DNA of 27,830 nt from Polyangiaceae bacterium (GCA_033763455.1 JANRKO010000037.1:1-27830), one strand, 5' to 3'; shown: positions 113 through 25,092, numbered from the stretch's first letter. The notes: generated by a model from the sequence alone, not told the origin. A program made the numbers and translations.

Positions 113-1861
113 GTGGCAACACCCGGTGTTTACTTGATGAAGAAACTAGACATGGCCACGAAAGCACTCCTTCCATCTAAGCGAGCCATTTGGGCTCGGC
201 TCACCACCTTGGCTTGCGCTGCGGGGGCAGCCTTTTCGTGTAGCGACGACGCTTCATCCCCATTGCCCACGGGTACCGGTGGCACAGCGGCCATCACGGG
301 AGGCGCGAGCGCAAAGAGCGGTGGAGCCGCGAGTGGCGGGACGGGTGGGGCGGGGGTGACAGCCGGGGTTGGGGCAACAGGTGGAGCTGCTATGGCCGGA
401 GCTGGAACCGGGGGCGCTAGCGGCGGGGCGAACGGCGCGTCGGGTGGGCAGGCGGGCGCTGCGGGGCTGGCCGGGGCGGGGGGTGCGTCCGGGGGCGCAC
501 CGTCGTCGACTGGGGGTGCTGGCGGTCAGGCAGGGGCTCCCGTTGCCGGTGCCCCAGGCTCGGGCGGTCAAGCTGCCACTTCGTATACTGAGTTCTCGAG
601 TCCAGTGCCGGTTTCTCCGACGGAGGCAGATCGCTTCTTTGGAGTTACGTTCGATCCAGAAGGGCGGGTATACGCCACGGGTTATGTCGTCGGGGGCAAC
701 GGGGACAGCCGTGTGGCGTTAGTGCGGTTTCTCTCGAACGGTAACTTGGATACTGGTTTCGGAACCTTTGGTGTTGTGACCTTAAATACCACCGTCGGGG
801 CAGGAACCACAGACCAAGGGCGCTCCGTACGCGTGCAGTCGGACGGGAGGGTTGTTGTAGCGGGGTACACTCAGAACGCTTCGAACATGTTGGACAGGGA
901 CGTGGTGGTGGCCCGTTTTACCAGCAGCGGCACGCTTGATACCACGTTCGGCAACTTGGGACTCACGATCTTGGATATTAACGCCGCCACGCCTACTACT
1001 GGTGCGCCAGACACCCTGTGGGACATGGATCTTGATGCGACAGATCGCATCGTACTGTTCGGAGTGACCGAAGCGCTCGACATACGCACCGATCAGGAGC
1101 GCTTTGTCGCCCGGCTCACCAAAGACGGCGCTCTTGATACGAGCTTTGCCGCCGCGAGCACTTTGCCCGGAGTTTTCACGCATGATCTGGATGCGCTTGG
1201 CCTGGCCGACCAAGCCCGCGGGGGGTTCGTTCAAGCGGACGGCAAGATCCTCGCCTCTGGCTACACCCCAGTAGGCGGCAACAACGAAGTCGTGCTCGTG
1301 CGCCTCAACGACAATGGGACACCCGACCCTACGTTCTCGGGAGGCGGCGTGGTTCGTTCGGCGGTTTTTCCAGCTCCCGGCATGGCAGAAGCCTACGGAG
1401 CCGTCCGGCAATCCGACGGAAAATACGTCACTACAGGTTACGGGCGAGAGGCAGCTTCGCCGGCTCCGGTGGACTTAGTGTCCTTCCGCTATGGATCGGA
1501 TGGGGCGCATGACACGAGCTGGAATGGAGGTGGAGCCCTCATTCACAACGTGGGCGTTAACGACCGCGGCCGAAACCTCTTGGGCTTGCCCGATGATCGG
1601 ATCGTGATGGTGGGTACGGCTACGCCGGTGGACTCCGAAGACGCGATGGTGGTCCTTGTCCGAAACACGGGCGCTCTTGAAACCACTTTTGGTACGATTG
1701 CGAAGCCAGGCTACCGCTTGTTCGACTTCGGGGGTGCGGACGAAGAGTTCTACGGCGTGGCACTCTCGCCTGATAAGCGACTGCTGGCCATCGTTGGTTA
1801 CCGCTCAGGCGGCGTGATCACCAACGACGACGCCACGCTGCTCTTGCTGCCGGTTCCCTGA
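113..1861 (+). CDS. Lipoprotein with Gly/Ala-rich linker and delta-60 repeat (DUF5122-like) beta-propeller domain
   Basis: AAGGAG (101-106) precedes GTG 113; alternative ATGs at 137 and 152. Signal ends AAFSC, followed by ~110 aa of G/A/S/T linker. About six delta-60-like repeats follow (GNLDTGFG, GTLDTTFG, GALDTSF, GTPDPTFS, GAHDTSWN, GALETTFG) with VQSDGRVVVAG/QADGKILASG units. Confidence 0.85.
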   Translation: MATPGVYLMKKLDMATKALLPSKRAIWARLTTLACAAGAAFSCSDDASSPLPTGTGGTAAITGGASAKSGGAASGGTGGAGVTAGVGATGGAAMAGAGTGGASGGANGASGGQAGAAGLAGAGGASGGAPSSTGGAGGQAGAPVAGAPGSGGQAATSYTEFSSPVPVSPTEADRFFGVTFDPEGRVYATGYVVGGNGDSRVALVRFLSNGNLDTGFGTFGVVTLNTTVGAGTTDQGRSVRVQSDGRVVVAGYTQNASNMLDRDVVVARFTSSGTLDTTFGNLGLTILDINAATPTTGAPDTLWDMDLDATDRIVLFGVTEALDIRTDQERFVARLTKDGALDTSFAAASTLPGVFTHDLDALGLADQARGGFVQADGKILASGYTPVGGNNEVVLVRLNDNGTPDPTFSGGGVVRSAVFPAPGMAEAYGAVRQSDGKYVTTGYGREAASPAPVDLVSFRYGSDGAHDTSWNGGGALIHNVGVNDRGRNLLGLPDDRIVMVGTATPVDSEDAMVVLVRNTGALETTFGTIAKPGYRLFDFGGADEEFYGVALSPDKRLLAIVGYRSGGVITNDDATLLLLPVP

Positions 1862-1900
1862 CGGGCTTGCCTTCCAAGTTAAGCTTCGCACCTCTGCCCT

Positions 1901-3370
1901 ATGACTTTAGCCTGTCTTAAGCACGTCAAGCGACGACCACCGCTGATTCTTGGCGTGGTGGCGTTCTTGGCCACGCCAGCCTGCCGCAAACCTGCGCCTG
2001 ATGAGGTGGTTTTTCAAGGCACGAGCGTGGTCGCCCGCCCCATGAACACGGCGGGTGCCACCGGAGGCAGCCCCGCGCTGGGCAGCGGTGGCGTGCTCAA
2101 CAGGCCTACTTCAGGCGCCACAGTGAGCAACCCCACCGGCGGGACTGGGGGGCAACCGAATCCAGGTAGTGGTGGGTCGCCGTCCAGCGCATCCGGCGGG
2201 AGCACGCCTCAGCCAATGGGAGGTTCTGCGGGCCAAAGCCCGCTACCTCCGGAACCACTCATTCCACGAGCGGTAAGCTGTGGAGGCGCCAACGTTGTGG
2301 TTCCCTTCAGCAAGGAAGCGTTGCTTGGCTCGATCGCCGAATGTGCGGTGAAGTCCTACGTCGATTTCGAGGTCGCAGCGCGCGCACTGAGCTTGGTCCT
2401 CGCTGGCACCCGTACAGACACAACCCCCGAACAGGCCTGGCTCAGCACCCAACGCGCCTGGCAGCATGCCGAGCTTTTCCGCTTCGGCCCTGCGGGACGC
2501 TCTACCGAGCCAGGCGGGCGGGACCTGCGCGACCACATCTACGGTTGGCCGTTGATCAGCCGCTGCAAAATAGAGGAGCAGTTGGTGAGTCAGGCCTACG
2601 CGCTCCCGACGTTCTCCGACACTACCATTAATGGGCGCGGGCTAGGCGCCCTAGAATACTTGCTGTTCTACAAGGGCAGCGACAATGCTTGCTCCGCCTT
2701 CTCTCCAATCAACGCAGGAGCGTGGGTTGCATTGGGTCCCGTTGAGCTCGCTCAACGAAAACGCGCGTACGCGTTGGCCGCTGCCAGCGACGTAGTGGCG
2801 CGCGCCAATTCACTGTTGTCATTTTGGGATCCTGCCTCGGGCAACTTCTGCAAGGAAGTCACCCAAGCAGGCACAGGTAGCACAACGTTCGGTAGTACTC
2901 AGTTGGCTCTGAACGCGGTGAGCGACGCGCTCTTTTACATGGACGAGGAGTTCAAAGATTGGAAGCTGGGGCGCCCCTCGGGCCTGGTAGAGTGTGCTGG
3001 GTTGAGCTGCCCTGAGGCGGTGGAGGCTCCGTATGCAGGGGCTTCGTTGGACAACTTACGAGCTAACGTGTCAGGGTTTCGCAGCCTGTTTCAAGGCTGC
3101 GGCCAGGGCCATTCAGGCCTTGGCTTCGATGATTGGCTCATCGCGGTGGGTGCGAGTGACCTCAACGCGCGCATGTTCGGCGCACTCGATCAACTGGAGC
3201 AAAAGCTCAAGGCCGTCCCCGTTCCGCTCGAAGATCTGGTTAGAACGGACCTTGCCCGCGCCCAGGAGCTTCACGCTGCCGCCAAGGCCCTTACTGATCT
3301 TCTGAAGACGGAGTTCGTCACGTTGCTGAATCTGGACTTGCCGAAATCGGTTGAAGGTGACAACGACTAG
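1901..3370 (+). CDS. Imelysin-family (Peptidase M75-like) lipoprotein, probable metal/iron-uptake component
   Basis: Lipobox-like ATPAC and G/S/P linker. Imelysin-like motifs AWQHAELFRFGP, IYGWP, RGLGALEYLLF, KDWKLGRP and EAPYAGASLDNLRANV, plus an acidic C-terminus EGDND. Confidence 0.85.
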   Translation: MTLACLKHVKRRPPLILGVVAFLATPACRKPAPDEVVFQGTSVVARPMNTAGATGGSPALGSGGVLNRPTSGATVSNPTGGTGGQPNPGSGGSPSSASGGSTPQPMGGSAGQSPLPPEPLIPRAVSCGGANVVVPFSKEALLGSIAECAVKSYVDFEVAARALSLVLAGTRTDTTPEQAWLSTQRAWQHAELFRFGPAGRSTEPGGRDLRDHIYGWPLISRCKIEEQLVSQAYALPTFSDTTINGRGLGALEYLLFYKGSDNACSAFSPINAGAWVALGPVELAQRKRAYALAAASDVVARANSLLSFWDPASGNFCKEVTQAGTGSTTFGSTQLALNAVSDALFYMDEEFKDWKLGRPSGLVECAGLSCPEAVEAPYAGASLDNLRANVSGFRSLFQGCGQGHSGLGFDDWLIAVGASDLNARMFGALDQLEQKLKAVPVPLEDLVRTDLARAQELHAAAKALTDLLKTEFVTLLNLDLPKSVEGDND

Positions 3371-4751
3371 TTCCTTCTACCGCCTCTTGACGCGGCTGCG
3401 AGAACCCGTCGATTCGGCGTGGTTGGCTGCCTTTCGTGTATTGTTTGGGCTGACGCTAGCGGTGAGCATCGGTCGCTTCATCTGGAACGGCTGGATTGAT
3501 ACCTTCTACGTTCGCCCCACCTTTCGCTTCTCGTACTTTGGCTTCGAATGGCTCACCCCGCTTTCAGATGAAGGGTTCCACCTGCTGTTCTGGGTGCTGG
3601 GTGCACTGGCTGTCGCAGTGGCACTCGGATTTTTGTTCCGCCTCACTGCCCTGCTGTTCGCCCTGGGCTTCGCTTACCTCCAGCTCCTGGATGTGGGAAC
3701 CTACCTCAACCACTATTATCTGGCTGCGCTCCTCAGCTTTCTGTTGTGGCTCTCCCCCGCCCATCGTACCTGGTCGTTGGATCGCTGCCTGTTTCGAATG
3801 CGTTCGCCTGAGAAAGTACGCGCTCTCTGGCTTTACCTATTTCGATTTCAGCTGGCGGTTGTTTACACGTTTGCTGGGCTTGCCAAGGCCACTCCAGATT
3901 GGTTGTGGCACGCGCAGCCGCTGGGCATTTGGATTTCGTCTCACACTGACCTGTTCCTGGTTGGGCCGTTCTTCCGGCTGCCTTTTGCGGCCCACGTCAT
4001 GAGTTGGGCGGGCTTTCTGTTCGATATGAGTATCGCTTGGCTCTTGCTCGTTCCGCGCTTGCGCCCCTTTGCGTACCCGGTCTTGCTTTTCTTCCACAGC
4101 ATGACGAGCGTGCTGTTTCCAATTGGGATGTTCCCGGTGATCATGACCTTGGGTGCGCTGGTTTTCTTTTCACCTTCTTGGCCAAGGAGGCTCCTGGGAA
4201 TTCTCGGCGCACGGCTCGCGTCGGATCCCAACCCCGCCACAAATGCAGAGGGAACCCTAGGGTTTTCCCGGCTGGACCGTCTGGGTCTCATGGCTGCCGC
4301 CAGCTACTGTGTCCTCCAACTCGCGATGCCGTTGCGCTATTTGGCATATGGAGGCAACGTGCTTTGGCACGAGCAAGGCATGCGCTTCTCCTGGCGTGTT
4401 ATGGTGCGCGAGAAGAATGGAAGCGTTACCTTCGTTGTGCGTGAGCCGCGTACGGGCAAGATTTGGCACGTCAGTGCACGCCGCTACCTGAACCCGGTGC
4501 AGGAGCGTGAAATGTCCACCCAGCCTGATTTGATCTTGCAGCTAGCGCATCGAATCAGGGACGATTACCGTGCCCTTACCAACTCGCCCGTCGAAGTGCG
4601 TGCGGAGGCCCTCGTGTCGCTCAACGGAAGGCGCATTCATGCTCTGATTGATCCCAATGTGGATCTCGCAACAGTCCAAGACAGCCTCCTTCCAGCCCGA
4701 TTCATCCTCCCCTCTCCTGTGGAAGCCCCACCTCACCTTAAGCGCATATGA
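3351..4751 (+). CDS. HTTM-domain / vitamin K-dependent gamma-carboxylase-like membrane protein
   Basis: Multi-TM protein with LAAFRVLFG, YLNHYYL, VYTFAGLAK..DWL, FHSMT..LFPIGMFP, WHEQGMRFSWRVM, MSTQPDLILQLAH and VSLNGR motifs. Start uncertain (TTG 3351 or a nearby GTG/TTG); overlaps the imelysin 3' end. Confidence 0.88.
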   Translation: MKVTTTSSFYRLLTRLREPVDSAWLAAFRVLFGLTLAVSIGRFIWNGWIDTFYVRPTFRFSYFGFEWLTPLSDEGFHLLFWVLGALAVAVALGFLFRLTALLFALGFAYLQLLDVGTYLNHYYLAALLSFLLWLSPAHRTWSLDRCLFRMRSPEKVRALWLYLFRFQLAVVYTFAGLAKATPDWLWHAQPLGIWISSHTDLFLVGPFFRLPFAAHVMSWAGFLFDMSIAWLLLVPRLRPFAYPVLLFFHSMTSVLFPIGMFPVIMTLGALVFFSPSWPRRLLGILGARLASDPNPATNAEGTLGFSRLDRLGLMAAASYCVLQLAMPLRYLAYGGNVLWHEQGMRFSWRVMVREKNGSVTFVVREPRTGKIWHVSARRYLNPVQEREMSTQPDLILQLAHRIRDDYRALTNSPVEVRAEALVSLNGRRIHALIDPNVDLATVQDSLLPARFILPSPVEAPPHLKRI

Positions 4752-6991
4752 GCTGCCGTCTCCCTCGTTATCGTCCACCATCGAGATTTCGTTCCAGGCT
4801 CCTTGCAGGGGCGTTCGGTGGGTACTTAGTGGCTGTAAGTCTTGCTGCTGGAGCTCAGACCGTCGAGGCAACTCCCGCTGCCGAAACGAATCCAACTGAA
4901 GCAAGTCCACTGGAGGTGATGATCGTCGGGGTTCCAGCGCGGCGCGTGGCGGGTTCAGCTCACGTGATCCAAAAGGCTGAGCTCGAACGCTTCGAATACG
5001 ACGACCCGCACGCGGTCTTGCAGAGTGTTCCGGGCGTCTACGTGCGAGGCGAAGACGGCGTCGGTTTGCGCCCGAATGTCGGCCTACGGGGAGTTAACCC
5101 TGACCGCAGCAAGAAGTTGGCACTCTATGAAGACGGCGTCCCGTTTGCGCCCGCCCCGTATTCGGCTCCTGCGGCCTATTATTTCCCCGTGCTCACCCGC
5201 ATGCACCACCTGCGGATCGTGAAAGGGCCAAGTGCGATAAGCTATGGGCCGCAGACCGTGGGCGGCGCGATGGAGCTCATCACGCGACCTATTCCAGCGA
5301 ACGCAGAGGGAAGCGCGGACGTGGCGGCGGGAGAATTCGGCTACGGCAAGGCGCACGGGTATTTCGGCTCAAGCGACGGTAAGAGCGGGTTTCTCGTTGA
5401 GGGTGTGCATCTCATGAACAGCGGCTTCAAGGAGCTCCCAAGTGGCGCTGACACGGGTGCCTATCGCAATGAATGGATGTTCAAGTCATCCTACGCCCCC
5501 AACCCAAGCGCCGCGGATCAGAGCGAGTTCACTTTGAAGCTCACCTATTCGGACGAAGTCTCTAATGAGACTTACCTTGGCCTCACAGACAGTGATTTTC
5601 GCAAGTTCCCCGATCGAAGGTACGCGGCGAGCCAACTCGACCGCATGGCGTGGCACCGTTTTGCCGTAGCTCTCAAACACGAATTCGTGACCCTATCAGG
5701 AGTGAAGGTACGGACGCTTGTCTATCGTCAAGACATGGCTAGAACCTGGCGAAAGCTGAACGGGTTCCGCGGTGCCCAGCTCTTCGACGTTACGACCACC
5801 CCAGATACGCCACAGAATCAGATTTTTGCCGAGTTGTTGCGCGGCACGCAAAACTCCGGCTCACCCACCGAGGGGCTCCTCATCGGGCCGAATCAACGCG
5901 AGCTCGCGTCCCAAGGCATCGAAACTCGCGTTCAGTTAGCAAAGGTGACGGGTCCCGTGCACCACGATCTGGAATACGCCGCGCGCTTGCACAACGATCG
6001 CGTAGAGCGCCGCCACAGTGAGGATGGTTTCGTGTTCGTTGACGGTCGGCTTCTGCCAGACGCCACCCCGACTGTCGTAACGGCCTTCAACGAGGCGGAA
6101 AGCTCCGCACTAGCACTCCACGCCGTAGACAAGGCAACCTGGGGCGAGCTTACGCTCACGCCTGGCGCCCGCCTTGAGGTTGTGCGTTCCATCTTTCGCG
6201 ATCGCACCTCCGGGGAACAGGCGACCCAGCTCACCCACGCCATTCTTCCGGGCGTAGGAGCATTTCTGTCCTTGTCCGACGCGTTCGGCGTTCTGTCCGG
6301 CGTGCACCGCGGTTTTAGCCCACCCGCTCCGAGCTTGGAACGCCAAGTTTCCCCTGAATTCAGTGTGAACTACGAAGCCGGTGGGCGCTTCATAGAAGGG
6401 GCGACTCGCCTCGAACTCATTGGTTTCTACAACGACTACTCGAACCTCACCGAGGTGTGCACGTTTTCGAGCGGCTGCAGGGAGTCGGATTTGGACCAAC
6501 AAGTGGATGCCGGCCAAGCTGCCATCTATGGCGCTGAGGTGTACCTCGGGGCAACGCCAGCTGCCGGCGAATTCAAGGTCCCGATGAGTCTCGCTTATAC
6601 CGTGACGCGCACTGAGTTTCTCCGCGCCTTTGCTTCAAGCGACCCAATCTTTGGAACGGTTGAGGTCGGTGACGAAATTCCGTACGTGCCACGGCATCAA
6701 GCGTCTGCCTCTTTGGGGCTCGAACAGGAACGGTTCGGTGCCGCTGCGCACGCAGTCTTCGTATCCCGTATGCGTGAGCAGGCGGGCTCGGCGCCCCTCT
6801 CCGAGGTACTTTCCACCGACGAACAATTCACGGTGGATTTTAGTGGATATTATCAGATTCACGCTTCGATTAAGCTCTATGCCAACCTGCGTAATGCCTT
6901 CGATCAGCGGGCCATCGTATCCCGCCGGCCGTACGGGGCCCGCCCGAATGCGCCGCGCTGGACGCAAGTGGGCATCAAAGCTGATTTCTGA
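4748..6991 (+). CDS. TonB-dependent outer-membrane receptor, FecA-like
   Basis: ATGA overlap with the upstream gene. Signal peptide, plug domain (VPGVYVRGEDGVGLRPNVGLRG, YEDGVP, IVKGPSAISYGPQTVGGA) and a C-terminal barrel ending NAPRWTQVGIKADF. Confidence 0.95.
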   Translation: MSCRLPRYRPPSRFRSRLLAGAFGGYLVAVSLAAGAQTVEATPAAETNPTEASPLEVMIVGVPARRVAGSAHVIQKAELERFEYDDPHAVLQSVPGVYVRGEDGVGLRPNVGLRGVNPDRSKKLALYEDGVPFAPAPYSAPAAYYFPVLTRMHHLRIVKGPSAISYGPQTVGGAMELITRPIPANAEGSADVAAGEFGYGKAHGYFGSSDGKSGFLVEGVHLMNSGFKELPSGADTGAYRNEWMFKSSYAPNPSAADQSEFTLKLTYSDEVSNETYLGLTDSDFRKFPDRRYAASQLDRMAWHRFAVALKHEFVTLSGVKVRTLVYRQDMARTWRKLNGFRGAQLFDVTTTPDTPQNQIFAELLRGTQNSGSPTEGLLIGPNQRELASQGIETRVQLAKVTGPVHHDLEYAARLHNDRVERRHSEDGFVFVDGRLLPDATPTVVTAFNEAESSALALHAVDKATWGELTLTPGARLEVVRSIFRDRTSGEQATQLTHAILPGVGAFLSLSDAFGVLSGVHRGFSPPAPSLERQVSPEFSVNYEAGGRFIEGATRLELIGFYNDYSNLTEVCTFSSGCRESDLDQQVDAGQAAIYGAEVYLGATPAAGEFKVPMSLAYTVTRTEFLRAFASSDPIFGTVEVGDEIPYVPRHQASASLGLEQERFGAAAHAVFVSRMREQAGSAPLSEVLSTDEQFTVDFSGYYQIHASIKLYANLRNAFDQRAIVSRRPYGARPNAPRWTQVGIKADF

Positions 6992-7131: not shown

Positions 7132-8115
7132 ATGTTTCAATCCGTTCATGCTAGCCGATTTCAGCGCTCATGGCTCGCCGCTGGCACTCTGTGGCTCCAA
7201 GCGGCCGTAACCTTGCACGCTTGTGCACCTCAAAGCGACGCCAAGTCTCCGACTACTGTCTCGCCTAGGGCGGCCAGTGGTGCGGCTCTTGCCCCAACAC
7301 CTGCCAGCCCTAACGATGCGCGAGGTGGGCGCCTTTACGACAATTGGCGCAACGAGAAGAAGCTGCTGAGCTTCGTCGCTGACTCTTCGAAAACCCCAGA
7401 ATTGGATGGGGAAGGTGGGCCCCATAGTAACGGAACGTTGAGCGATTCCGAGGGAAAGCCGTTGGCAAATACGGGGCACGATTATCGGCTTAAGAACTTC
7501 TTTGGTTGGGATCTGCGTGGCGCCGAGGGCATCTATGGGGCCACGTTTCACAACAAGCCGTTCGCAATCAGCGTTAACCTGCTGACCGACACACGCACGG
7601 AGGCCGAACTCTTCGCATGGTTTAAAGGGGGAGGCAGTGGGTTGCCCGCATTCGGCTCAGTACTGAGCGACGCCGACTTGAAAGACCTCGTGGCTTTCGT
7701 AATAAAGACCCGCGCTAATGCTTTGCCACGCCCTGAACAGATCTTTCGACTAGATGCGGAAGCCCCCAAGAACTACGCCCTTTTAGACGGTGGGAATGCC
7801 GTCAGGGGCAAAGCCAGCTATCAGGAGGCCTGCTCCGGATGCCACGGGGCTGACGGCCGCAACTTCCCCCTCGACGAGACCGAAAGCGTGGGGAGCCTTT
7901 CGCGCTTGAGCGGCTATGAGGTGTGGTTCAAGGTCGTCAACGGTCAACCGGGCTCGCGTATGGGCCGCATGCTACCCGAAGCTCACGGCAAGCTGGAGGC
8001 CCAGGCTGTGCTCGACGTATTGGCAGCCCTCTGCGATCGAACAGCCTTTCCAGCGCTCAACGGCACCGCCGAAGTCCCGGACGGCGATGCTCGGTGCGGT
8101 TCGTATTTGAAGTAA
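7132..8115 (+). CDS. c-type cytochrome lipoprotein (one intact CxxCH)
   Basis: GGAGAGG RBS-like site upstream, lipobox TLHAC, and RGGRLYDNW motif. CSGCH is encoded at 7831-7845, with downstream NGQPGSRM as a possible Met ligand. Confidence 0.8.
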   Translation: MFQSVHASRFQRSWLAAGTLWLQAAVTLHACAPQSDAKSPTTVSPRAASGAALAPTPASPNDARGGRLYDNWRNEKKLLSFVADSSKTPELDGEGGPHSNGTLSDSEGKPLANTGHDYRLKNFFGWDLRGAEGIYGATFHNKPFAISVNLLTDTRTEAELFAWFKGGGSGLPAFGSVLSDADLKDLVAFVIKTRANALPRPEQIFRLDAEAPKNYALLDGGNAVRGKASYQEACSGCHGADGRNFPLDETESVGSLSRLSGYEVWFKVVNGQPGSRMGRMLPEAHGKLEAQAVLDVLAALCDRTAFPALNGTAEVPDGDARCGSYLK

Positions 8116-8148: not shown

Positions 8149-10068
8149 CTATCGAGCCTCAAGTTCCCGTCGATCATCCGCGAGCACTCGACCGAACTGT
8201 TGCTGAAAGAGTTCAGCGTAAAGCCCGCCTCTTGCGAGGAGTTCTGTGTGCGTGCCAGATGCGACGACGCGGCCGCCATCCATTACCAAGATCTTGTCAG
8301 CATTCAGGATGGTGGAGAGCCGGTGGGCGATAATGAGTGAGCTTCTCCCTCGGAGAAGGTGTTCCAGGGCGCGCTGGATCAGGAACTCACTGGTGGCGTC
8401 CAGATTGCTGGTGGCCTCATCGAGGATCAAAATCTTCGCGTCTTTGAGCAGTGCGCGTGCGATGGCGATACGCTGTTTTTCGCCTCCAGAAAGTCTAAAG
8501 CCGCGTTCACCCACGAGGGTGTCGTAGCCCTGGGGCAGGTTCTGAATGAAGTCGTGGATCTGGGCCGCCTCGGCTGCCGACTCGATCTCTTGCTGCGTAG
8601 CGGTCGGTTTGGCGTAGATGAGATTGTCGCGGATGCTGGCGTTGAACAGGAAGGTATCTTGGGTGACCATGCCGATGTGTGTGCGCAAGCCTTCTTGGGT
8701 GAGCTCACGCACGTCGTGGCCGTCAACGGTGATCTTGCCATCGCTCACGTCGTAAAAGCGGGGCAACAAATAGGTGATGGTGGTCTTGCCGGCGCCGCTT
8801 GGGCCAACGAGCGCTACTTTTTCGCCAGGCTTGATTTCAAAGCTTACGGCATTAAGCAAAAAAGACTGCTTCTTTTCGGTAGCTGAGCTTTGCTCTTTGA
8901 GCGCCGCCGGAGGCGTGGGGTACTGAAACGACACATGCTCGAAGCGAATGTGCCCTTCGGTGCTCGGAAGGCCTGTGGCATTCGGACGATCAGAAACTTC
9001 CGGCACGCGGTCGAGGTAATCGAAAATTCTATCGAAGACAGCGAGCGACGCCTGGATATCCACATACACGCTCGCTAGGGAGTGCATGGGCCGATAGAGG
9101 TTGCCGAGCAGTGCCGCAAAAGCCACCACCGTTCCCACGCTGAGCTCGTTCTTCAGGACCTCGAGGCCGCCATACCAATAAATGAGGGCGGGGCCCGTTA
9201 CAGCGAACACGCTCAGCACCATAAAGAGCCAGCGGCCCACAATGGCGTTCTTAATATTGAGTTGTTTTACGCGCGCACTGCGCCCCAAAAACACATTCTG
9301 ATCGGCCTCTGCTTGGTTGAACACCTTAGTAAGCACCGAGCCGCTCAGGTGGAGCCGTTCGTGCAAGAACGCCAACAGATCGGCTTGTGCCTCTTGCAGC
9401 TGCTTGGAGAGCCCGCGACGCATTCCGCCTACGATGCGGGAGGGGAAGTAGAAGGCCGGCATAATGAGGAGTGCCAACACCGCTAAACGCCAGCTCATGG
9501 AGAAGACCACGATCGAGGTCACAACGAGAGACAATACGTTGCTCACGATGGAGGTAAGCGTGCTTGTGGCAACATGTTCTACTGCGTAGACGTCATTGTT
9601 GATGCGAGAAACGATCTCACCGCCGCGGGTGGTGGTGTAGAAGTGCAGCGACATTTTTTGCAAGTGCCGGTAAAGCTCCCGCCTGAAATCAAACAGGATG
9701 CTTTGGCCCGCGCGTGCTGAATACGTTTGTTGAAGCACGCTGATGAGGCCCATCAGCACCGCGATGGCGACCATTGCGAGCGCAAGCAGGCCCAGCAGTT
9801 GATGATTCTTCTCGGCGATGCCGCGGTCTAAAATCGCCTTCACGCAAATCGGCGGTAGCACCGAAAGGCCCGCAGTTAAAACGATGCACAGGAAGATAAC
9901 CAGCCACTCTTTTTTGTACGGGCGAAAGTAGCTGAACACACGTCGGAGGCGCTCACGGCTGAACTCGGGGCGAGGGCCTTCAAAGCGTTTGGTGAGAGAA
10001 TCACCCAGGCCGTACGTGCGGGCCACGCCGCCAGTGCTGGGGCTCCCGCCAATCCAACCGCCTTTCAC
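8149..10068 (-). CDS. Fused ABC exporter (transmembrane + ATP-binding domains), MsbA/multidrug-like
   Basis: Six-TM domain, Walker A GPSGAGKT, Q-loop VTQD, signature LSGGEKQR, Walker B ILILDEAT and IAHRLST. Confidence 0.95.
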   Translation of the reverse strand: MKGGWIGGSPSTGGVARTYGLGDSLTKRFEGPRPEFSRERLRRVFSYFRPYKKEWLVIFLCIVLTAGLSVLPPICVKAILDRGIAEKNHQLLGLLALAMVAIAVLMGLISVLQQTYSARAGQSILFDFRRELYRHLQKMSLHFYTTTRGGEIVSRINNDVYAVEHVATSTLTSIVSNVLSLVVTSIVVFSMSWRLAVLALLIMPAFYFPSRIVGGMRRGLSKQLQEAQADLLAFLHERLHLSGSVLTKVFNQAEADQNVFLGRSARVKQLNIKNAIVGRWLFMVLSVFAVTGPALIYWYGGLEVLKNELSVGTVVAFAALLGNLYRPMHSLASVYVDIQASLAVFDRIFDYLDRVPEVSDRPNATGLPSTEGHIRFEHVSFQYPTPPAALKEQSSATEKKQSFLLNAVSFEIKPGEKVALVGPSGAGKTTITYLLPRFYDVSDGKITVDGHDVRELTQEGLRTHIGMVTQDTFLFNASIRDNLIYAKPTATQQEIESAAEAAQIHDFIQNLPQGYDTLVGERGFRLSGGEKQRIAIARALLKDAKILILDEATSNLDATSEFLIQRALEHLLRGRSSLIIAHRLSTILNADKILVMDGGRVVASGTHTELLARGGLYAELFQQQFGRVLADDRRELEAR

Positions 10069-10256: not shown

Positions 10257-11819
10257 ATGAGTCACATAGCGCAAGTCACCGAAGCTGTGCGGGCTTCCGA
10301 GCCTGGGGCTGGGAGCACGTCTTCTTCTGCTCGCCGCGTCGAGCGGCTGCTCGCTGGTGTTGCGGTCTTTCTGGGGCTTCTGCTTCTGGGCATCTTCTTT
10401 GGCGTGCCCTACCTCCCCATGGTGGATTTACCACAGCATGCGGCACAGATCAGCGTGTGGCTGCACCTCGGGGATAAAAGCTTTGCTGGGGTGGAGAATT
10501 TTAGAGTTAATCTGCGAACGCCTTACCTTACCGGTTACGCTCTAGCCCGTTGGCTTGGCGCGTGGTTGGGCGTCGTGCCGGGCCTGAAGTTGGCGATCTG
10601 GCTCAGTGTGGTGGCGCAGTTTGGAGCCTTCGCTCTTCTGGTTCGAAAGCTTGGGCATCCCTTTTGGGTGAGCCTTTTCGGGCTCCCTTTTGCCTTTGGC
10701 TACAGTTTTTACTTTGGATTCGTGAGCTTTCTGGCTGCTGTGCCCTTCGTTCTTTTGGCACTCACTCTAGCGCTCTGGCATCGCGAGCGTGCTTCGGTGC
10801 TCACTGGAAGCGCGCTTGCGCTTGCGCTTGCGGGGGCCGTGGTTTCGCATGGCTTCGCCTGCGGCGTGGCGTTAGCCATGGTGGGGCCGCTGTTGTTGCG
10901 TGGGGCTGGGCACTTCTTTGTGCGTGTGGCACCGCTCGGCGCGCCGCTATTGGTCTCGTGGCTGCTGCTGTCCGATGGGGATTCCGCGAGGAAGATCGGC
11001 GCCACTATTTGGGACCCTCGCTTCTTCGAGCTCGCGCAGGTCCCGAGCTTGATGTTGTCGGCCTCAGGCGGAGACGCCGCTGCAACCGCCTTCGGAGTGT
11101 TCATGCTGGCGGCCATGTCGCTCGGCGTTGGGAGGCCTTCGCGGGAGCCCGAACGTTGGCTTCCGTTGCTTCTTGTGGTGGCGGGCTTTTGCTTGTTTCC
11201 GGCTGTGATGGGTGGGTTTGGGCCGCTGCATCCCCGTTTTGCCTCATTTTTTCCAGCCGCGCTTTTGCTGGGGTTTGAACCCAAAAATGCACCCGGCTTT
11301 AAGCTGTTGCCGGGGGTGGCCGCAGCACTTTGCGGTGCATGGTGTGCGGTGTTTGGCGTGCGCACCTACGCGTTCAGTCAGGAGGCAGCACCTGTCCGCA
11401 ATTGGGTAAAGCAGATGCCAGCCGGTCTTCGCGTTCGCCCTATTGTTTTTGAGCGCGAGAGCGAAGCCTTCCCCGGGGCCCCCATGCATCTGCATATGTC
11501 GGCTTATTATCTCGCCGAGAAAGGCGGGATCCAGGGCTACTCCTTTGCCATGTATCCAACCAGCGTCATCCGCTATGTGCCCGGCTTCGTGCCAGGCATG
11601 GGTGGGGGCGCGGAATGGCACCCGGAGCGCTTTAGCGCACTGAAAGACGTGCCGCGGTTTGATTGCTTCTTGGTGCACAGCGAAATGGATCGCTCGGTGT
11701 CGTTATTTGGGGATCTTTTGAGTCAGGTTGAGTTGGTTTTTCACGAAGGAAACTGGTGGGCGTATCGCGTGCGGCCTCAGGTGAGCGTGCGGCGTCAAAA
11801 AAGAAGCTGGGTATTATGA
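10257..11819 (+). CDS. Polytopic membrane protein, possible GT-C-fold glycosyltransferase
   Basis: About 11-12 hydrophobic segments, an acidic loop motif LPMVDLPQH after TM1, YSFYFGFVSF, HPRF, and a soluble C-terminal domain. The GT-C assignment is inference. Confidence 0.55.
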   Translation: MSHIAQVTEAVRASEPGAGSTSSSARRVERLLAGVAVFLGLLLLGIFFGVPYLPMVDLPQHAAQISVWLHLGDKSFAGVENFRVNLRTPYLTGYALARWLGAWLGVVPGLKLAIWLSVVAQFGAFALLVRKLGHPFWVSLFGLPFAFGYSFYFGFVSFLAAVPFVLLALTLALWHRERASVLTGSALALALAGAVVSHGFACGVALAMVGPLLLRGAGHFFVRVAPLGAPLLVSWLLLSDGDSARKIGATIWDPRFFELAQVPSLMLSASGGDAAATAFGVFMLAAMSLGVGRPSREPERWLPLLLVVAGFCLFPAVMGGFGPLHPRFASFFPAALLLGFEPKNAPGFKLLPGVAAALCGAWCAVFGVRTYAFSQEAAPVRNWVKQMPAGLRVRPIVFERESEAFPGAPMHLHMSAYYLAEKGGIQGYSFAMYPTSVIRYVPGFVPGMGGGAEWHPERFSALKDVPRFDCFLVHSEMDRSVSLFGDLLSQVELVFHEGNWWAYRVRPQVSVRRQKRSWVL

Positions 11820-12715
11820 GCGAACGATGGGTGTCTGCGGTTGAGCCGCTGGAGCATGTTCCGGCAACTTCGGGTTATCGATTTGAGAGCGGAGCGGTAC
11901 CGCGTGCGGGCGCCGAAGAAGAACTCCAGCTTGCGGATTTTAAACGCTATTTCCCGCACACGCCCACGGCTTTGGCCATCAAAGAATGTGCTCGGTTGGC
12001 GGCCGTCAGGCGCTATCCGTGTCCTGGGCCTGTGTTGGATGTCGGCTGCGGCGATGGCTTGTTCGCGCGTCTTGCTTTTGACAACGTGGAAGTTTGGGGG
12101 ATCGACATTGATGCCAAAGAAGGGCGCTGGGCCGCAGCGAGCCGTGCGTACGCCCAGGTCATTTTGGGGGACGTAACCCAAGCCAAGCTTCCCGAGGCAT
12201 TCTTTGCGAGTTGCGTCGCCAACTGCTCGCTAGAGCATGTGCCTCGCATCGACCTCGCGCTCCGCTCAATCCAGCGCTCGCTCAGGCCCGGTGGGGTAGC
12301 GTATATGTTCGTTCCGAATCCCGAGTGGGCTCGGCATCTGCTTTCGGTGCGCGTGCTCCAGGAGCTGGGTGCCCCGGGGCTCGCTTCAGAGTTGCAGGGC
12401 GCGATCGATCGATTTTTTGTGCACCACCACCTCTACGACGAAGCCCGATGGAGTGAGCTCTGCGTGGAGGCTGGGCTCGAAGTGGTGGCGGTTGAGCCGG
12501 TGCTTTCCTCTGCCACAACGGTGGCATTTGAAGCATTTCTGTTGCCGTCTTTGCTTGGTCTTTTAAACAAGAATCTTACGACGCGTTGGACCAATTTCCC
12601 GCGTTTTCGACGCTTGTTTGCCCGGCCCGTGTATGAACTCGTTCAGCAGGTGATGAAGCGGGCCGACCCGAGCCTTACGGCTGAATACCTTGTGATTGCC
12701 AGGCGTCCAGCATGA
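11816..12715 (+). CDS. Class I SAM-dependent methyltransferase
   Basis: ATG 11816 overlaps the upstream stop (ATGA). Motifs VLDVGCGDG, WGIDID, NCSLEHV and LRPGG. Confidence 0.9.
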   Translation: MSERWVSAVEPLEHVPATSGYRFESGAVPRAGAEEELQLADFKRYFPHTPTALAIKECARLAAVRRYPCPGPVLDVGCGDGLFARLAFDNVEVWGIDIDAKEGRWAAASRAYAQVILGDVTQAKLPEAFFASCVANCSLEHVPRIDLALRSIQRSLRPGGVAYMFVPNPEWARHLLSVRVLQELGAPGLASELQGAIDRFFVHHHLYDEARWSELCVEAGLEVVAVEPVLSSATTVAFEAFLLPSLLGLLNKNLTTRWTNFPRFRRLFARPVYELVQQVMKRADPSLTAEYLVIARRPA

Positions 12716-13341
12716 GCGCTGAAGCCGTTGATTATTTCTCGAATCACCGCTTGAAGCTGAGGTTCCCGTGGAGCCTGTATCACGGGCCCATCGTGCGTGA
12801 GCTTGGGCGCGTGCTGCGAGCGCACGGGCCTGAGGCGCTTAATGTAGGGTCGGGGCCGTTTTTCGAGTTGGAGCAGGTGTCCGGCAACGGGCTCAACTTC
12901 ACTATCTGCGATATCGATGCGCGCGCGATTGAACTCGCGAAGGAGATTCACGGCGGCCGCATCAAGCGAGCGGATGTCGTTGGTATGGATGGGCGCCTTC
13001 CGTACCAAGATGACTCCTTCGACGTGGTTGTATCCATGGACGTGGTCGAGCATGTGCCCGAGCCACTTCCTTGGTTGGCCGAAACCTTGCGCGTATTGAA
13101 GCCTGGCGGCGTGCTCTTTCTCACGACACCGAATTATGCTTCCGCCTCTTTGCGCATCATCGAAAATACGGCGCTCGAAGCGATTGCACGGGTGCAGGGG
13201 TTCAGCCGTAAGGAGTTGCACCCCACCAAGTTGAACTCTCAGAAGCTGAAGGATCTGCTGCGCCAAGTTGGCGCGACGCGTATTGAGACGCGTCCGATCG
13301 CTCTCGGATGGGTTCTCTCGGCGACCGCGCAAAAGGCCTGA
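12712..13341 (+). CDS. Class I SAM-dependent methyltransferase (type 11-like)
   Basis: ATGA overlap. Motifs LNVGSG, CDID, LPYQDDSFDVVVSMDVVEHV and RVLKPGGVLFLTTPN. Confidence 0.9.
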   Translation: MSAEAVDYFSNHRLKLRFPWSLYHGPIVRELGRVLRAHGPEALNVGSGPFFELEQVSGNGLNFTICDIDARAIELAKEIHGGRIKRADVVGMDGRLPYQDDSFDVVVSMDVVEHVPEPLPWLAETLRVLKPGGVLFLTTPNYASASLRIIENTALEAIARVQGFSRKELHPTKLNSQKLKDLLRQVGATRIETRPIALGWVLSATAQKA

Positions 13342-15412: not shown

Positions 15413-15584
15413 CACTGGTACGTCTATGTTCCCCCACACTTGCAGCAGCTGTAAACAAGGAGCGTCGCAAGTGCGATAGAAGTGATCGGTTTGTGTTGCG
15501 GAAAACGCGACGACTATGCGAGAGGCGGGTACACTGGGCCTAGCTGACGAGCTCTTTGGCAGAGGGGTACATGCGAGGCTTCAA

Positions 15585-16484
15585 ATGATACGACCTTTCA
15601 CGAAAACTCTGCGATTGCTTTTAACCGTGCCGGCCTGCGCGTGGGCTTTCGCCGGCTGTTCGGCACCTGAACACTCCGAGATCTTCGGCGCGCAGCGTGC
15701 CGCTGGTGAGAACTTGGGAACGGGTGGTGCAACGAGCGCGAGCGGGGGCGGCACCTCGATTACGGGTAGCGGTGGGGCCGCTAATCCCGGTGGAAAAGTG
15801 CCCACCGGTGGGCGGAACGGTGGGATGGGAAAAATGGGTGGCGCGCCCGCAATGGGTTCTGGAGGCGCCGCGCCGATAGTGGATCCGATCCCTGGCGATA
15901 CGGGGGGTACCGATGGCGGCGTGATCGATGCGACGGGTGGTGCTTCGAACGGCACTGGTGGTCAGCAAGGCGGAACGTGCGTGCCAACGGCTGAAGTGTG
16001 CGACGGGCTCGACAACAACTGCGAGAACGGAACGGCTGACGAAATGTGCCCTTCGGAGTGCAAAGGCTTGGCGATCGCTGGGCGCGGGTACATGTTCTGC
16101 GGTGCGCGTGAGCTCACTTGGCTTGAATCGCAGAAATTCTGCGTCGACCACGGAATGTCCCTCCTGAAACTTGAAACGGCCGATGAAAACACTCAGGTGC
16201 TGGCCGTGGCGGCCGGGTTACCTAACGGTGGAATCGAGTGGGCTTGGCTTGGCGCCACCGATATTGCCAACGAAGGCTCGTGGGTCTGGGAGGGCGGTGT
16301 GCACTTTTGGCAAGGGGAAGCGAACGGTACGCCCGTAAATGGCCGGTTCTCCGCCTGGATGGAGTCGCAGCCCAACAACAGCAATGGTGGGGACAACTGT
16401 GCGCGTGCCTTTCCGGACACTGCCAACTGGACCGACGGCGATTGCGGCGTCACCTCGGCCGGCTTGATCTGCGAGGCGGACTAA
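15585..16484 (+). CDS. Lipoprotein with Gly-rich linker, EVCDGLDNNC Cys motif and C-type lectin domain
   Basis: Lipobox AFAGC, G-rich linker and EVCDGLDNNC. C-type lectin signature: YMFC..TW..SQKFC, WLGATD..EGSWVW, W..SQPNN..DNC, WTD.DC, LICE. Start is ATG 15585 or 15516. Confidence 0.88.
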   Translation: MIRPFTKTLRLLLTVPACAWAFAGCSAPEHSEIFGAQRAAGENLGTGGATSASGGGTSITGSGGAANPGGKVPTGGRNGGMGKMGGAPAMGSGGAAPIVDPIPGDTGGTDGGVIDATGGASNGTGGQQGGTCVPTAEVCDGLDNNCENGTADEMCPSECKGLAIAGRGYMFCGARELTWLESQKFCVDHGMSLLKLETADENTQVLAVAAGLPNGGIEWAWLGATDIANEGSWVWEGGVHFWQGEANGTPVNGRFSAWMESQPNNSNGGDNCARAFPDTANWTDGDCGVTSAGLICEAD

Positions 16485-22419: not shown

Positions 22420-22638
22420 GCGCCGCTCATACCCGCGTACAGGGCGCCGAACAACGTTGCGGGCGGTGCGTCCTTGCTCAGGCTACCGGCTGGCGGCGAT
22501 TGATCGCGACTGCGAGGCCCCGTGGGCCGGGCCTGGGGTTCGCGGCTTCGCCAAGATGGCCCCAACGGTTGGATTACGCCCTGGTACGCGGCCCCGGGTT
22601 GCCGCGCCGCGCCTGAGGCACGTACCATCTGCGATCCG

Positions 22639-25074: not shown

Positions 25075-25092
25075 GTTCGAGCATCAGCATCT

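Follow-up and report, generated by a model that had tools for sequence, protein, structure and literature searches.

Our preferred reading, held tentatively with a probability of about 0.4, is that a Polyangiaceae bacterium carries a TonB-dependent metal-acquisition cassette in which an integral membrane relative of human γ-glutamyl carboxylase (GGCX) modifies, probably by carboxylation, the aspartate-containing C-terminal tail of an imelysin. The metal is most likely iron. The cassette occupies positions 113 to 6991 of the window, i.e., the whole stretch of 27,830 nucleotides that was analyzed. The imelysins of such cassettes end in an invariant D-x-D-COOH motif, which is a new observation, and the predicted docking of the carboxylase-like enzyme on its imelysin neighbor provides a testable idea of the role of these bacterial enzymes.

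The ORF listing confirmed the architecture given in the preliminary description: four co-oriented genes on the + strand between positions 113 and 6991, separated successively by a 39-nt gap, a 20-nt overlap, and a 4-nt overlap. Domain searches likewise confirmed the assignments. The first gene (113..1861, +), whose GTG start codon at 113 is preceded at 6 nt by AAGGAG, encodes a delta-60-repeat (DUF5122) β-propeller with a long Gly/Ala/Ser-rich linker. The second (1901..3370, +) encodes an imelysin (Peptidase_M75) lipoprotein and the third (3351..4751, +) an integral membrane HTTM domain followed by a VKGC lumenal, here periplasmic, domain. The fourth (4748..6991, +) encodes a TonB-dependent outer membrane receptor of the plug and 22-strand barrel type (PF07715 and PF00593). 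The start codon of the HTTM gene, TTG at 3351 or GTG at 3357, is located within the codons (3347..3367, +; translation checked) of the imelysin C-terminal tail S-V-E-G-D-N-D, confirming the acidic EGDND end noticed earlier. Initiation at the GTG codon would shorten the overlap to 14 nt; the database form of the protein (P0006) has 464 residues. Since only 112 nt precede the first gene on the contig, the promoter region is cut off, and no clear Fur box was found in these 112 nt, which are all that the contig retains.

The first gene product matched TIGR02608 in six stretches (E = 6.2e-70; 230.9 bits versus a cutoff of 76.5) and PF17164 (DUF5122; E = 1.2e-31), identifying delta-60 repeats, which are units of 55 to 60 residues. 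The propeller part of its earlier description as a propeller lipoprotein stands, while lipidation is only probable and the lipobox is not canonical. The imelysin matched PF09375 (E = 1.1e-27; 97.8 bits versus a cutoff of 23.5). In the AF2 model, residues 1 to 112 form the signal and a disordered linker, residues 125 to 480 are all helical (pLDDT of ~97), and a flexible acidic tail follows (pLDDT of 71 for the tail block). Foldseek retrieved IrpA-like 4ecg and 3pf0, ICMP 7xrx, EfeO, and Algp7, with E values of 4e-8 to 7e-7 for 4ecg, 3pf0, and 7xrx, so that Pfam and Foldseek both indicate the two-lobed helical imelysin fold. Fold and Pfam family are thus shared with the periplasmic iron proteins of the IrpA/EfeO-M75 type (4ecg, 3pf0, 7xrx, EfeO 7wgu, EfeM 7q1g, and Algp7), and the depositors' titles of solved imelysins point to iron ("iron-regulated protein A" and "metal-binding protein EfeO"). 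A cysteine at position 28, invariant in 71 orthologues, makes the imelysin a plausible lipoprotein, again with a noncanonical lipobox. The closest solved chain to the receptor is FecA (1pnz; E = 6.5e-24), and the label FecA-like is correct in the sense of nearest solved relative. The receptor was ruled out as a FecA equivalog: it scored 93.8 bits against the NCBIfam FecA model, for which the cutoff is 1100, and the N-terminal part of FecA is outside the match, because the alignment begins at FecA residue 111. It belongs to the generic TonB receptors in the branch related to FecA.

Synteny was sampled in the best 80 loci of 595 confirmed relatives, which come from Myxococcota, Bacteroidota, Balneolota, and Gammaproteobacteria. 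The imelysin gene is directly upstream of the HTTM gene in 75 of these 80 loci, the order is imelysin-receptor-HTTM in 3, and the remaining 2 lie at contig ends; an imelysin is part of the cassette in all 78 assessable loci. A TonB receptor gene directly follows the HTTM gene in 55 of the 80 loci and is found within 6 kb in 71. This linkage is strongly conserved, and the imelysin-HTTM-receptor neighborhood that the preliminary description had mentioned for other phyla does extend across phyla. The first slot, scored with our own HMM, is occupied by DUF4856 in 50 of the 80 loci and by the propeller in 16, which argues against the propeller as the partner of the enzyme.

The proposed link to iron is supported by a cassette of Riemerella anatipestifer (RAYM_09779-RAYM_09794), which comprises the same gene set in reversed order: receptor, "vitamin K-dependent gamma-carboxylase," imelysin, and a hypothetical protein. 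These genes are induced under iron restriction, with ratios of 2.1 to 3.1 (PMC5609570, Table 4), and are listed as Fur regulated, without discussion in the accessible portion of that article. The sister species Riemerella columbina (locus L078) has the order DUF4856-imelysin-HTTM-receptor. Judging from this locus, the Riemerella cassette differs from that of the window by a DUF4856 gene in place of the propeller gene, and its tail is of the D-G-D type. Fe3+-type binding proteins encoded in cassette variants lacking HTTM (see below) also point to iron.

The HTTM protein matched PF05090 (E = 7.7e-71; 239 bits) and PF22777 (VKGC_lumenal_dom; E = 2.1e-46; 158 bits), the cutoff being 27.7 bits, and aligned by phmmer against GGCX chains with residues 43 to 490 of human GGCX (27% identity; E = 3e-37). 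Its AF2 model (pLDDT of 94.5; pTM of 0.92) had 16 Foldseek matches at an E value of ≤0.001, all of them GGCX, with TM scores of 0.68 to 0.86 (0.80 to 0.86 for the best 15), values that fall to just 0.57 to 0.62 when normalized to the GGCX target. In a set of 70 diverse homologues (32 to 57% identity), R29, G93, N120, H121, K179, W184, P190, F248, H249, G259, F261, W339, and P392 were invariant. Five of these residues correspond to active-site residues of GGCX: K179 to K218, W184 to W223, N120/H121 to N159/H160, and F261 to F299; D225, the equivalent of D263, is kept in at least 90% of the homologues. According to the accessible text of PMC12647623, Lys218 is the catalytic base, supported by Trp223 and Asp263, Asn159 and His160 bind the substrate carboxylate, Phe299 stacks the CO2, and Tyr395 and Arg436 are dipeptide anchors that position Glu-containing peptides. 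Both structure prediction and structure comparison therefore uphold the identification of the protein as a GGCX relative, with the quinol and CO2 residues retained and the HTTM membrane and lumenal domains in common with human GGCX (PDB 9bvq, 9wfc, and 9l24). In contrast to the active-site residues, the two anchors are not kept (Y395 is replaced by M344 and R436 by E387, both in variable columns). The protein also differs from human GGCX in its size (466 versus 758 residues), since it ends at about human residue 490 and lacks the C-terminal lumenal domain (human residues ~490 to 758), and in its context, a TonB uptake cassette.

In 71 orthologues of the imelysin, the only invariant columns are C28, G247, D487, and D489, the last residue of the protein. 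The D-x-D end is present in 76 of 77 HTTM-adjacent imelysins versus none of the nine paralogous imelysins encoded by the same loci, some of which are in imelysin-DHOR-imelysin arrays. The preliminary description had envisaged a system of the Gla type, with γ-carboxylation of Glu in the imelysin, in the propeller, or in loops of the receptor, as in animal vitamin K-dependent proteins. Carboxylation would be in keeping with the family of the enzyme and with the residues conserved in it, and E485 of the tail falls inside the predicted interface described below; however, E485 is replaced by A, G, S, T, or P in orthologues, Bacteroidota tails (D-x-D-G-D) are free of Glu, and the propeller gives way to DUF4856 in most cassettes. 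With the two aspartates as the only invariant tail residues, and with both the Glu-dipeptide positioners and the C-terminal domain of GGCX missing, we regard this mechanism as highly improbable.

Prediction of a complex between the HTTM protein and the imelysin gave a score of 0.85, compared to 0.04 for the best of three controls. A score at that mark was obtained for 116 of 157 solved complexes and for 2 of 215 mismatched pairs, counts that are only rough here because our own alignments were used. The runs shared at least 87% of contacts, with a partner pLDDT of at least 88. On the HTTM side, the predicted interface comprises residues 118 to 121 and 256 to 261, in the active site, and residues 370 to 377, which correspond to Y425/L426 of the human propeptide exosite; on the imelysin side, it comprises residues 458 to 481 and the tail (483 to 489). 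The output gives no residue pairing, and the tail would be what meets HTTM residues 118 to 121 and 256 to 261. The predicted geometry would follow the same logic as substrate binding by human GGCX, in which the exosite is covered by a helix and the active site takes up an acidic stretch, although the human substrate has a propeptide and a Glu-rich domain, unlike the folded lipoprotein with its C-terminal D-x-D tail proposed here. The folding model may have been trained on GGCX-substrate complexes. Among the three candidate substrates put forward in the preliminary description, the imelysin tail is the one favored by the complex prediction. Tail type and enzyme also vary together: D-[NT]-D tails (32 loci) are associated with V115 and M344 in the HTTM protein, and D-G-D tails (45 loci) with K115 (43 of 45) and F344 (45 of 45), position 344 being the equivalent of the substrate anchor Y395 of GGCX. 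All D-N-D members fall into one clade (support of 99), for which one change suffices, and this co-switch is therefore one evolutionary event rather than independent evidence.

Bacterial HTTM/VKGC homologues had been called essentially uncharacterized, which is nearly right, and no mass-spectrometric or enzymatic evidence for cassette HTTM enzymes was found in the literature searched. Law et al. are said to have described MloH of malonomycin biosynthesis in 2018, and Rishavy et al. reportedly found in 2005 that a Leptospira orthologue is an epoxidase devoid of carboxylase activity. In the accessible portions of the sources, MloH from Streptomyces, a GGCX relative that carboxylates an Asp residue during malonomycin biosynthesis (PMC12186529 and PMC12647623), is the exception in print and the only bacterial member for which carboxylation is reported (PMC12647623, PMC12186529, and bioRxiv 10.64898/2026.08.19.745780). 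Compared by description in these sources, MloH differs from the cassette enzyme in that its substrate is a hybrid polyketide-peptide intermediate, it belongs to an antibiotic cluster with no imelysin, receptor, or iron link, and it is fused to a DUF5819-like region. As the substrate of MloH is thus not a protein, the cassette enzyme could carboxylate or otherwise modify a small molecule (a quinone or an imported chelate) or a lipid, with the imelysin as a structural or substrate-presenting partner. The loss of the GGCX peptide anchors would fit, as would the alternative enzyme of the slot, FA_hydroxylase, which comes from a lipid-modifying family. We nonetheless consider such a substrate quite improbable, since active-site residues touch the imelysin in the predicted interface, the substrate-anchoring position of the HTTM protein switches along with tail type, and the cassette contains no small-molecule biosynthetic genes.

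Six complete DUF4856-imelysin-receptor cassettes devoid of HTTM still carry the D-G-D tail, and an HTTM protein had no match anywhere in the genome for five of the six, in assemblies that may be incomplete. Modification of the tail, if any, is thus not obligatory. In three HTTM-less cassettes (L110, L116, and L118), the receptor gene is followed by one for a periplasmic binding protein of the Fe3+ type, and two (L124 and L125) have a divergent gene pair for DoxX and a membrane di-iron FA_hydroxylase. DUF4856-imelysin-receptor cassettes with the latter pair have the same three-gene core and D-G-D tail (L105 and L106), but a membrane O2-dependent enzyme of another family, divergently transcribed, replaces HTTM. 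Thus, different parts for hand-over and redox chemistry, in the membrane or the periplasm, take this slot.

These variants, together with the existence of the tail without HTTM, favor a redox module, in which the HTTM protein would only oxidize quinol, as an epoxidase or quinol oxidase serving as a membrane redox partner, and the tail would be a metal-carrying arm that delivers iron to this enzyme at the membrane, where the metal would be reduced, released, or passed on in the direction of the cytoplasm. ORF and domain searches detected no inner membrane iron permease encoded in the cassette, and a DCC1-like thiol oxidoreductase gene follows the receptor gene in 12 of 32 Flavobacteriales HTTM cassettes versus none of the 6 HTTM-less cassettes, both of which agree with this possibility. 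Giant-virus relatives lacking GGCX residues 374 to 418 are read as epoxidases only in the accessible part of PMC13486548, but this region is kept here (W339, S347, and W348). Furthermore, the CO2-stacking Phe and the carboxylate-binding N/H pair are invariant, the conserved set being the carboxylation half-site, and the HTTM/VKGC family has no known or evident site for heme or a metal. A purely redox role is therefore somewhat unlikely.

Points against the tail as a substrate are its presence without HTTM, the lost Y395/R436 anchors, the absent C-terminal domain, and the reported lack of carboxylase activity in a Leptospira orthologue. In the tail modification that we nevertheless prefer, the core of the system would be a surface or periplasmic lipoprotein (DUF4856, here the delta-60 propeller), the imelysin lipoprotein, and the outer membrane receptor, with HTTM/VKGC as an optional inner membrane module facing the periplasm. 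The HTTM protein would oxidize a quinol, putatively menaquinol, with O2 as GGCX does, generating a strong base. The part of the lumenal domain matching the GGCX propeptide exosite would dock the imelysin, and the active site would take in the invariant D-x-D tail. Modification would most likely be carboxylation at a carbon adjoining a carboxylate, either the β-carbon of Asp or the α-carbon of the terminal Asp, and we infer that the malonate-type product would be a Fe3+ ligand of higher denticity. MloH provides a bacterial precedent for carboxylation of an Asp residue.

A broader proposal, which we regard as unlikely, is that carboxylation of the terminal Asp by HTTM and di-iron hydroxylation in the sister cassettes both make a protein-borne chelator. 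Carboxylation at the β-carbon, or at the α-carbon adjacent to the free terminal carboxylate, would convert the D-x-D-COOH end to a tricarboxylate resembling citrate, which would hold the Fe3+ brought in by the FecA-related receptor, and the membrane di-iron hydroxylase of the sister cassettes would hydroxylate the same Asp instead. The tail would then be upgraded to a siderophore-like ligand by either of two membrane enzymes that both depend on O2 but are unrelated. If true, this would give bacterial vitamin K-type carboxylases their first protein substrate, the imelysin, and would be the first case of an enzyme forming carboxy-Asp within a protein.

Downstream of the cassette, a gene on the same strand (7132..8115, +), starting 140 nt past the receptor gene, encodes an exported c-type cytochrome with one CXXCH motif (PF13442 and PF00034). 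This protein is a possible accessory electron carrier. It is not conserved in the cassette, as phmmer found no relative in the best 80 related loci. Other heme proteins are encoded near some cassettes, namely, a di-heme DHOR in L040, L055, and L108 and a cytochrome b561 in L020.

The four co-oriented plus-strand genes are those named in the preliminary description, as confirmed by the ORF list, Pfam and NCBIfam: a delta-60-repeat/DUF5122 propeller (113-1861), a Peptidase_M75 imelysin (1901-3370), a protein with HTTM and VKGC-lumenal domains (3351-4751; hereafter HTTM) and a TonB receptor with Plug and barrel domains (4748-6991). A 39-nt gap is followed by overlaps of 20 nt and 4 nt, and the start codon of HTTM falls within the codons of the imelysin tail. 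The designation of the receptor as FecA-like stands as far as FecA is its closest solved chain, but the alignment begins at FecA residue 111 and the NCBIfam FecA model gives it 93.8 bits, where the cut-off is 1100. The window is one entire contig (27,830 bp) of a 6.56-Mb genome in 92 contigs, and the closest named relatives of its proteins are from Sorangium, Polyangiaceae and Pendulispora, which places the organism in the Myxococcota.

HTTM matches 4399 clusters at 50% identity (E ≤ 0.001), and of 201 Myxococcota genomes sampled, the window's own included, 49 have PF22777. Related loci were searched with a 16-sequence HTTM alignment in one genome per species, which gave 595 confirmed relatives. 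The best 80 loci were kept and belong to Myxococcota, Bacteroidota (Flavobacteriia, Cytophagia, Chitinophagia, and Saprospiria), Balneolaceae, and Gammaproteobacteria; culturable genera among the cassette loci include Flavobacterium, Myxococcus, and Corallococcus. Genes were detected with HMMs built from the window's proteins and run over all ORFs, since greedy longest-ORF calling, unsuited to high-GC loci, missed HTTM in 19 of the 80 and also in the HTTM-bearing loci L085 and L086. The gene neighborhood is conserved across phyla: in the best 80 loci, which are the closest relatives, so that the counts apply to this orthologous group and not to all bacterial HTTM proteins, 75 have an imelysin gene immediately before HTTM in the same orientation, 3 have the order imelysin-receptor-HTTM, and the remaining 2 have HTTM at a contig end. 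A TonB receptor is encoded within 6 kb in 71 of them, in 55 as the next gene after HTTM; the other nine include at least three that stop right after HTTM. DUF4856 is the first gene of the cassette in 50 of the 80 loci (Pfam check on 17), and 16 begin with a delta-60 propeller instead. The window's propeller is therefore a lineage-specific replacement rather than a constant partner.

Three loci contain, in sequence, imelysin, di-heme DHOR, imelysin, receptor, and HTTM genes (DHOR checked by Pfam in L040 and L055), an arrangement that ties the cassette to the imelysin/DUF1111 clusters, which are better known. In the window, the gene after the receptor encodes a c-type cytochrome (7132-8115, plus strand); it was rejected as a cassette member because it has no relative in the 80 related loci. 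In one propeller-type cassette from a gammaproteobacterium, the receptor is followed by cytochrome b561 (L020:11772-12518). Heme proteins thus recur near the cassette and are not fixed members. Three loci probably hold damaged copies, namely L010, with an imelysin terminating out of frame (..GRQ), L094, with a short imelysin (328 aa, ..EKC at the end) and a 170-nt gap before HTTM, and L100, with HTTM split over two ORFs.

The link to iron comes from Riemerella, in which the cassette genes RAYM_09779-09794 had ratios of 2.1 to 3.1 under iron restriction and were listed without comment by the authors (PMC5609570, Table 4). The sister species R. columbina carries a DUF4856-imelysin-HTTM-receptor locus (L078). 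This paper was the only one retrieved for gamma-carboxylase together with TonB, iron, and operon in the literature searched, a body that excludes many subscription papers. The 112 nt upstream of the cassette in the window, all that is present before the contig start, contained 0 sigma-70-like sites and no clear Fur box. No RNA sequencing run was listed as containing this stretch. We consider the cassette and its role in iron uptake to be likely to highly likely.

HTTM aligns to residues 43 to 490 of human GGCX (E 3e-37), and its AlphaFold model (pLDDT 94.5, pTM 0.92) matched GGCX structures only (16 at E ≤ 0.001; TM 0.80 to 0.86 for the best 15). Residue roles were taken from the accessible part of PMC12647623, and conservation was scored over 70 diverse HTTM homologues (32 to 57% identity). 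The catalytic base of GGCX, K218, corresponds to invariant K179; the residues supporting it, W223 and D263, correspond to invariant W184 and to D225, conserved in at least 90% of the homologues. Also invariant are N120/H121 (GGCX N159/H160, binding the substrate carboxylate), F261 (F299, stacking CO2), and W339 (W390, within the 374-418 region). The residues holding the Glu dipeptide, Y395 and R436, are not kept, their positions being variable and occupied by M344 and E387 in HTTM; nor is N290, which makes a hydrogen bond with vitamin K and is replaced by T252. The C-terminal domain of GGCX, after residue ~490, is missing. Judged from these residues, the apparatus that makes the base and holds CO2 and a carboxylate is intact, and that recognizing a Glu peptide is not. 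In the accessible part of PMC12647623, the sole remark on bacterial orthologues is that the CO2 and quinol residues are conserved. Giant-virus relatives, read as epoxidase only in the accessible part of PMC13486548, are devoid of GGCX residues 374-418; HTTM has this region.

Alignment of the imelysins accompanying HTTM revealed four invariant columns: the lipoprotein Cys, one Gly, the third-last Asp, and the last Asp. The terminus is D-x-D-COOH in 76 of 77 of these proteins, the single exception looking frameshifted, and none of nine paralogous imelysins from the same loci ends in D-x-D. Most Myxococcota and the Gammaproteobacteria have a tail of the form G-D-N-D; in Bacteroidota and in one basal group of myxobacteria it is D-G-D. 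The fold of the imelysin, well defined in the model for residues 125 to 480 and of lower confidence in the tail, matches IrpA-like, ICMP, EfeO, and Algp7 structures. The Glu of the window's E-G-D-N-D, the tail previously put forward as a candidate substrate, is not conserved across the cassette imelysins. True Glu carboxylation, for which HTTM has kept the base and not the Glu-dipeptide holders, is very improbable. An Asp residue is carboxylated in an antibiotic pathway by MloH, a bacterial relative of GGCX and the only bacterial member of the family with a carboxylation reported in the literature searched (accessible parts of PMC12647623 and PMC12186529). Carboxylation would be the most economical chemistry for HTTM because the CO2 and carboxylate sites are conserved and MloH provides a precedent for Asp; as the reaction catalyzed here, it is nonetheless doubtful.

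Co-folding, as suggested in the preliminary description, predicted an interface between HTTM (alignment of 70 homologues) and imelysin residues 125-489 (alignment of 71 cassette imelysins). The complex score was 0.85 (runs at 0.86, 0.85, and 0.84) versus 0.04 for the best of three controls, with a contact agreement between runs of at least 87% and a partner pLDDT of at least 88. Among solved complexes, 116 of 157 attain this score mark, as do 2 of the 215 mismatched pairs; the counts provide a rough calibration only, because our own alignments were supplied. On the HTTM side, the interface comprises residues 118-121 (including N120/H121), 256-261 (including F261), the lumenal strands 350-360 and 421-429, and residues 370-377, equivalent to human Y425/L426 of the propeptide exosite. 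On the imelysin side, it comprises the last helix (458-481) and the tail (483-489). GGCX likewise binds its substrates with a helix at the exosite and an acidic segment at the active site, an arrangement that is predicted for HTTM and the imelysin from a list of interface residues without explicit pairing of the tail with the active site, by a folding model that may know GGCX-substrate complexes. The prediction is support for docking, not proof, and physical docking of HTTM on the imelysin is probable. A small molecule as the substrate of HTTM is unlikely.

Comparison of 77 enzyme/imelysin pairs showed that just four HTTM columns separate D-[NT]-D from D-G-D tails. HTTM has V115, V337, M344, and R353 in the 32 loci with D-[NT]-D tails, and K115 (43/45), L337, F344 (45/45), and M353 in the 45 loci with D-G-D tails. 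Position 344 is the equivalent of GGCX Y395. Six D-G-D loci (five labeled Myxococcota and one Pseudomonadota) group with the D-N-D clade on the tree, yet all have K115 and F344. Because the D-N-D loci form a single clade (support of 99) and the tree requires no more than one change of the tail trait, the co-switch is one event and not statistical evidence; covariation of the tail and active site was therefore rejected as independent evidence. The location of the event is suggestive.

DUF4856 was searched in 151 Flavobacteriales genomes and was present in 43, from which 40 loci were fetched. HTTM was found in 32 of these (31 by HMM and L112 by Pfam), 2 were truncated, and 6 were complete DUF4856-imelysin-receptor cassettes devoid of HTTM, all six with a D-G-D tail. 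HTTM was not found anywhere in five of the six corresponding genomes, which may be incomplete. The tail was thus rejected as a mark of HTTM-bearing cassettes only: it belongs to the cassette imelysin itself, and HTTM is a module that can be absent. This persistence counts against a simple enzyme-substrate story and in favor of the main rival explanation, in which HTTM would perform redox chemistry only and the tail would be a metal-carrying arm; we hold this explanation to be rather unlikely.

We favor a modular iron-uptake cassette in which HTTM would dock on the imelysin and act on its Asp tail, perhaps by carboxylation, with a probability of roughly 0.42 for the whole chain; the tail as the substrate of HTTM is tentative. 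No paper was found that discusses the cassette, HTTM together with imelysin, DUF4856, or a bacterial vitamin K gamma-carboxylase of Leptospira in the literature searched, outside which many subscription papers lie. Novel in this work are the D-x-D tail, the predicted docking, and the mapping of residues. As a member of the GGCX family, HTTM would have a new partner, a new type of substrate, and a new biological setting. What the bacterial relatives of the vitamin K carboxylase do is made testable by a named partner, a tail of seven residues that include two invariant Asp, a predicted docking mode, and iron limitation as the inducing condition. The unexplained imelysin iron systems are concerned as well: the cassette is modular, and its membrane enzymes are interchangeable. 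Were the modification to prove real, vitamin-K-type carboxylation would extend to bacterial protein substrates and metal acquisition.

Accessory genes differed between the two types of cassettes. Among the 32 HTTM cassettes of Flavobacteriales, 12 (L090, L092-L100, L102, and L112) carry a gene for a DCC1-like thiol-disulfide oxidoreductase of about 135-148 aa directly after the receptor gene, versus none of the 6 HTTM-less cassettes, and a SnoaL-like gene often comes next. Fifteen DCC1-like HMM matches in the first set of loci were artifacts, all off-frame inside HTTM genes. A DCC1-like domain is fused to HTTM in a Firmicute, according to the accessible part of a preprint (bioRxiv 10.64898/2026.08.19.745780), and the DCC1-like protein may be a recycling partner for the oxidized quinone or epoxide. 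In the HTTM-less cassettes, the receptor gene is directly followed by that of an Fe3+-type solute-binding protein (SBP_bac_8/6/1/11) in three of six (L110, L116, and L118), and a divergent pair encoding DoxX and a membrane di-iron FA_hydroxylase is located upstream of DUF4856 in two of six (L124:4172-5602 and L125:4357-5780), with M1 peptidase and DUF6702 genes beyond. Elsewhere, the window's own genome has three genes with a VKOR domain and a single DCC1-like gene. It also holds a second, distant HTTM-domain gene (G000:C39:157816-158493, locus L002; E 6.5e-8, open frame of 337 aa) with no VKGC lumenal match.

The remainder of the contig is apparently unrelated to the cassette and encodes an MsbA-like exporter on the opposite strand, methyltransferases, a GMC oxidoreductase, and a type I restriction system. 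The ABC exporter gene (8149-10068, minus strand) adjoins a group at 10257-13341 comprising a gene for a 520-aa protein without a Pfam or NCBIfam match, followed, with an overlap, by two genes for class I SAM methyltransferases; together, they may form a small module, unrelated to the cassette, with a membrane or lipid function. A protein combining a C-type lectin domain with a weak MopE-like metal-binding motif, rare in bacteria, is encoded at 15516-16484. The type I restriction-modification system (22522-27746) looks complete, with hsdR (ResIII, EcoEI_R_C), hsdM (N6_Mtase), and hsdS (Methylase_S), and its final gene stops 84 nt short of the contig end.
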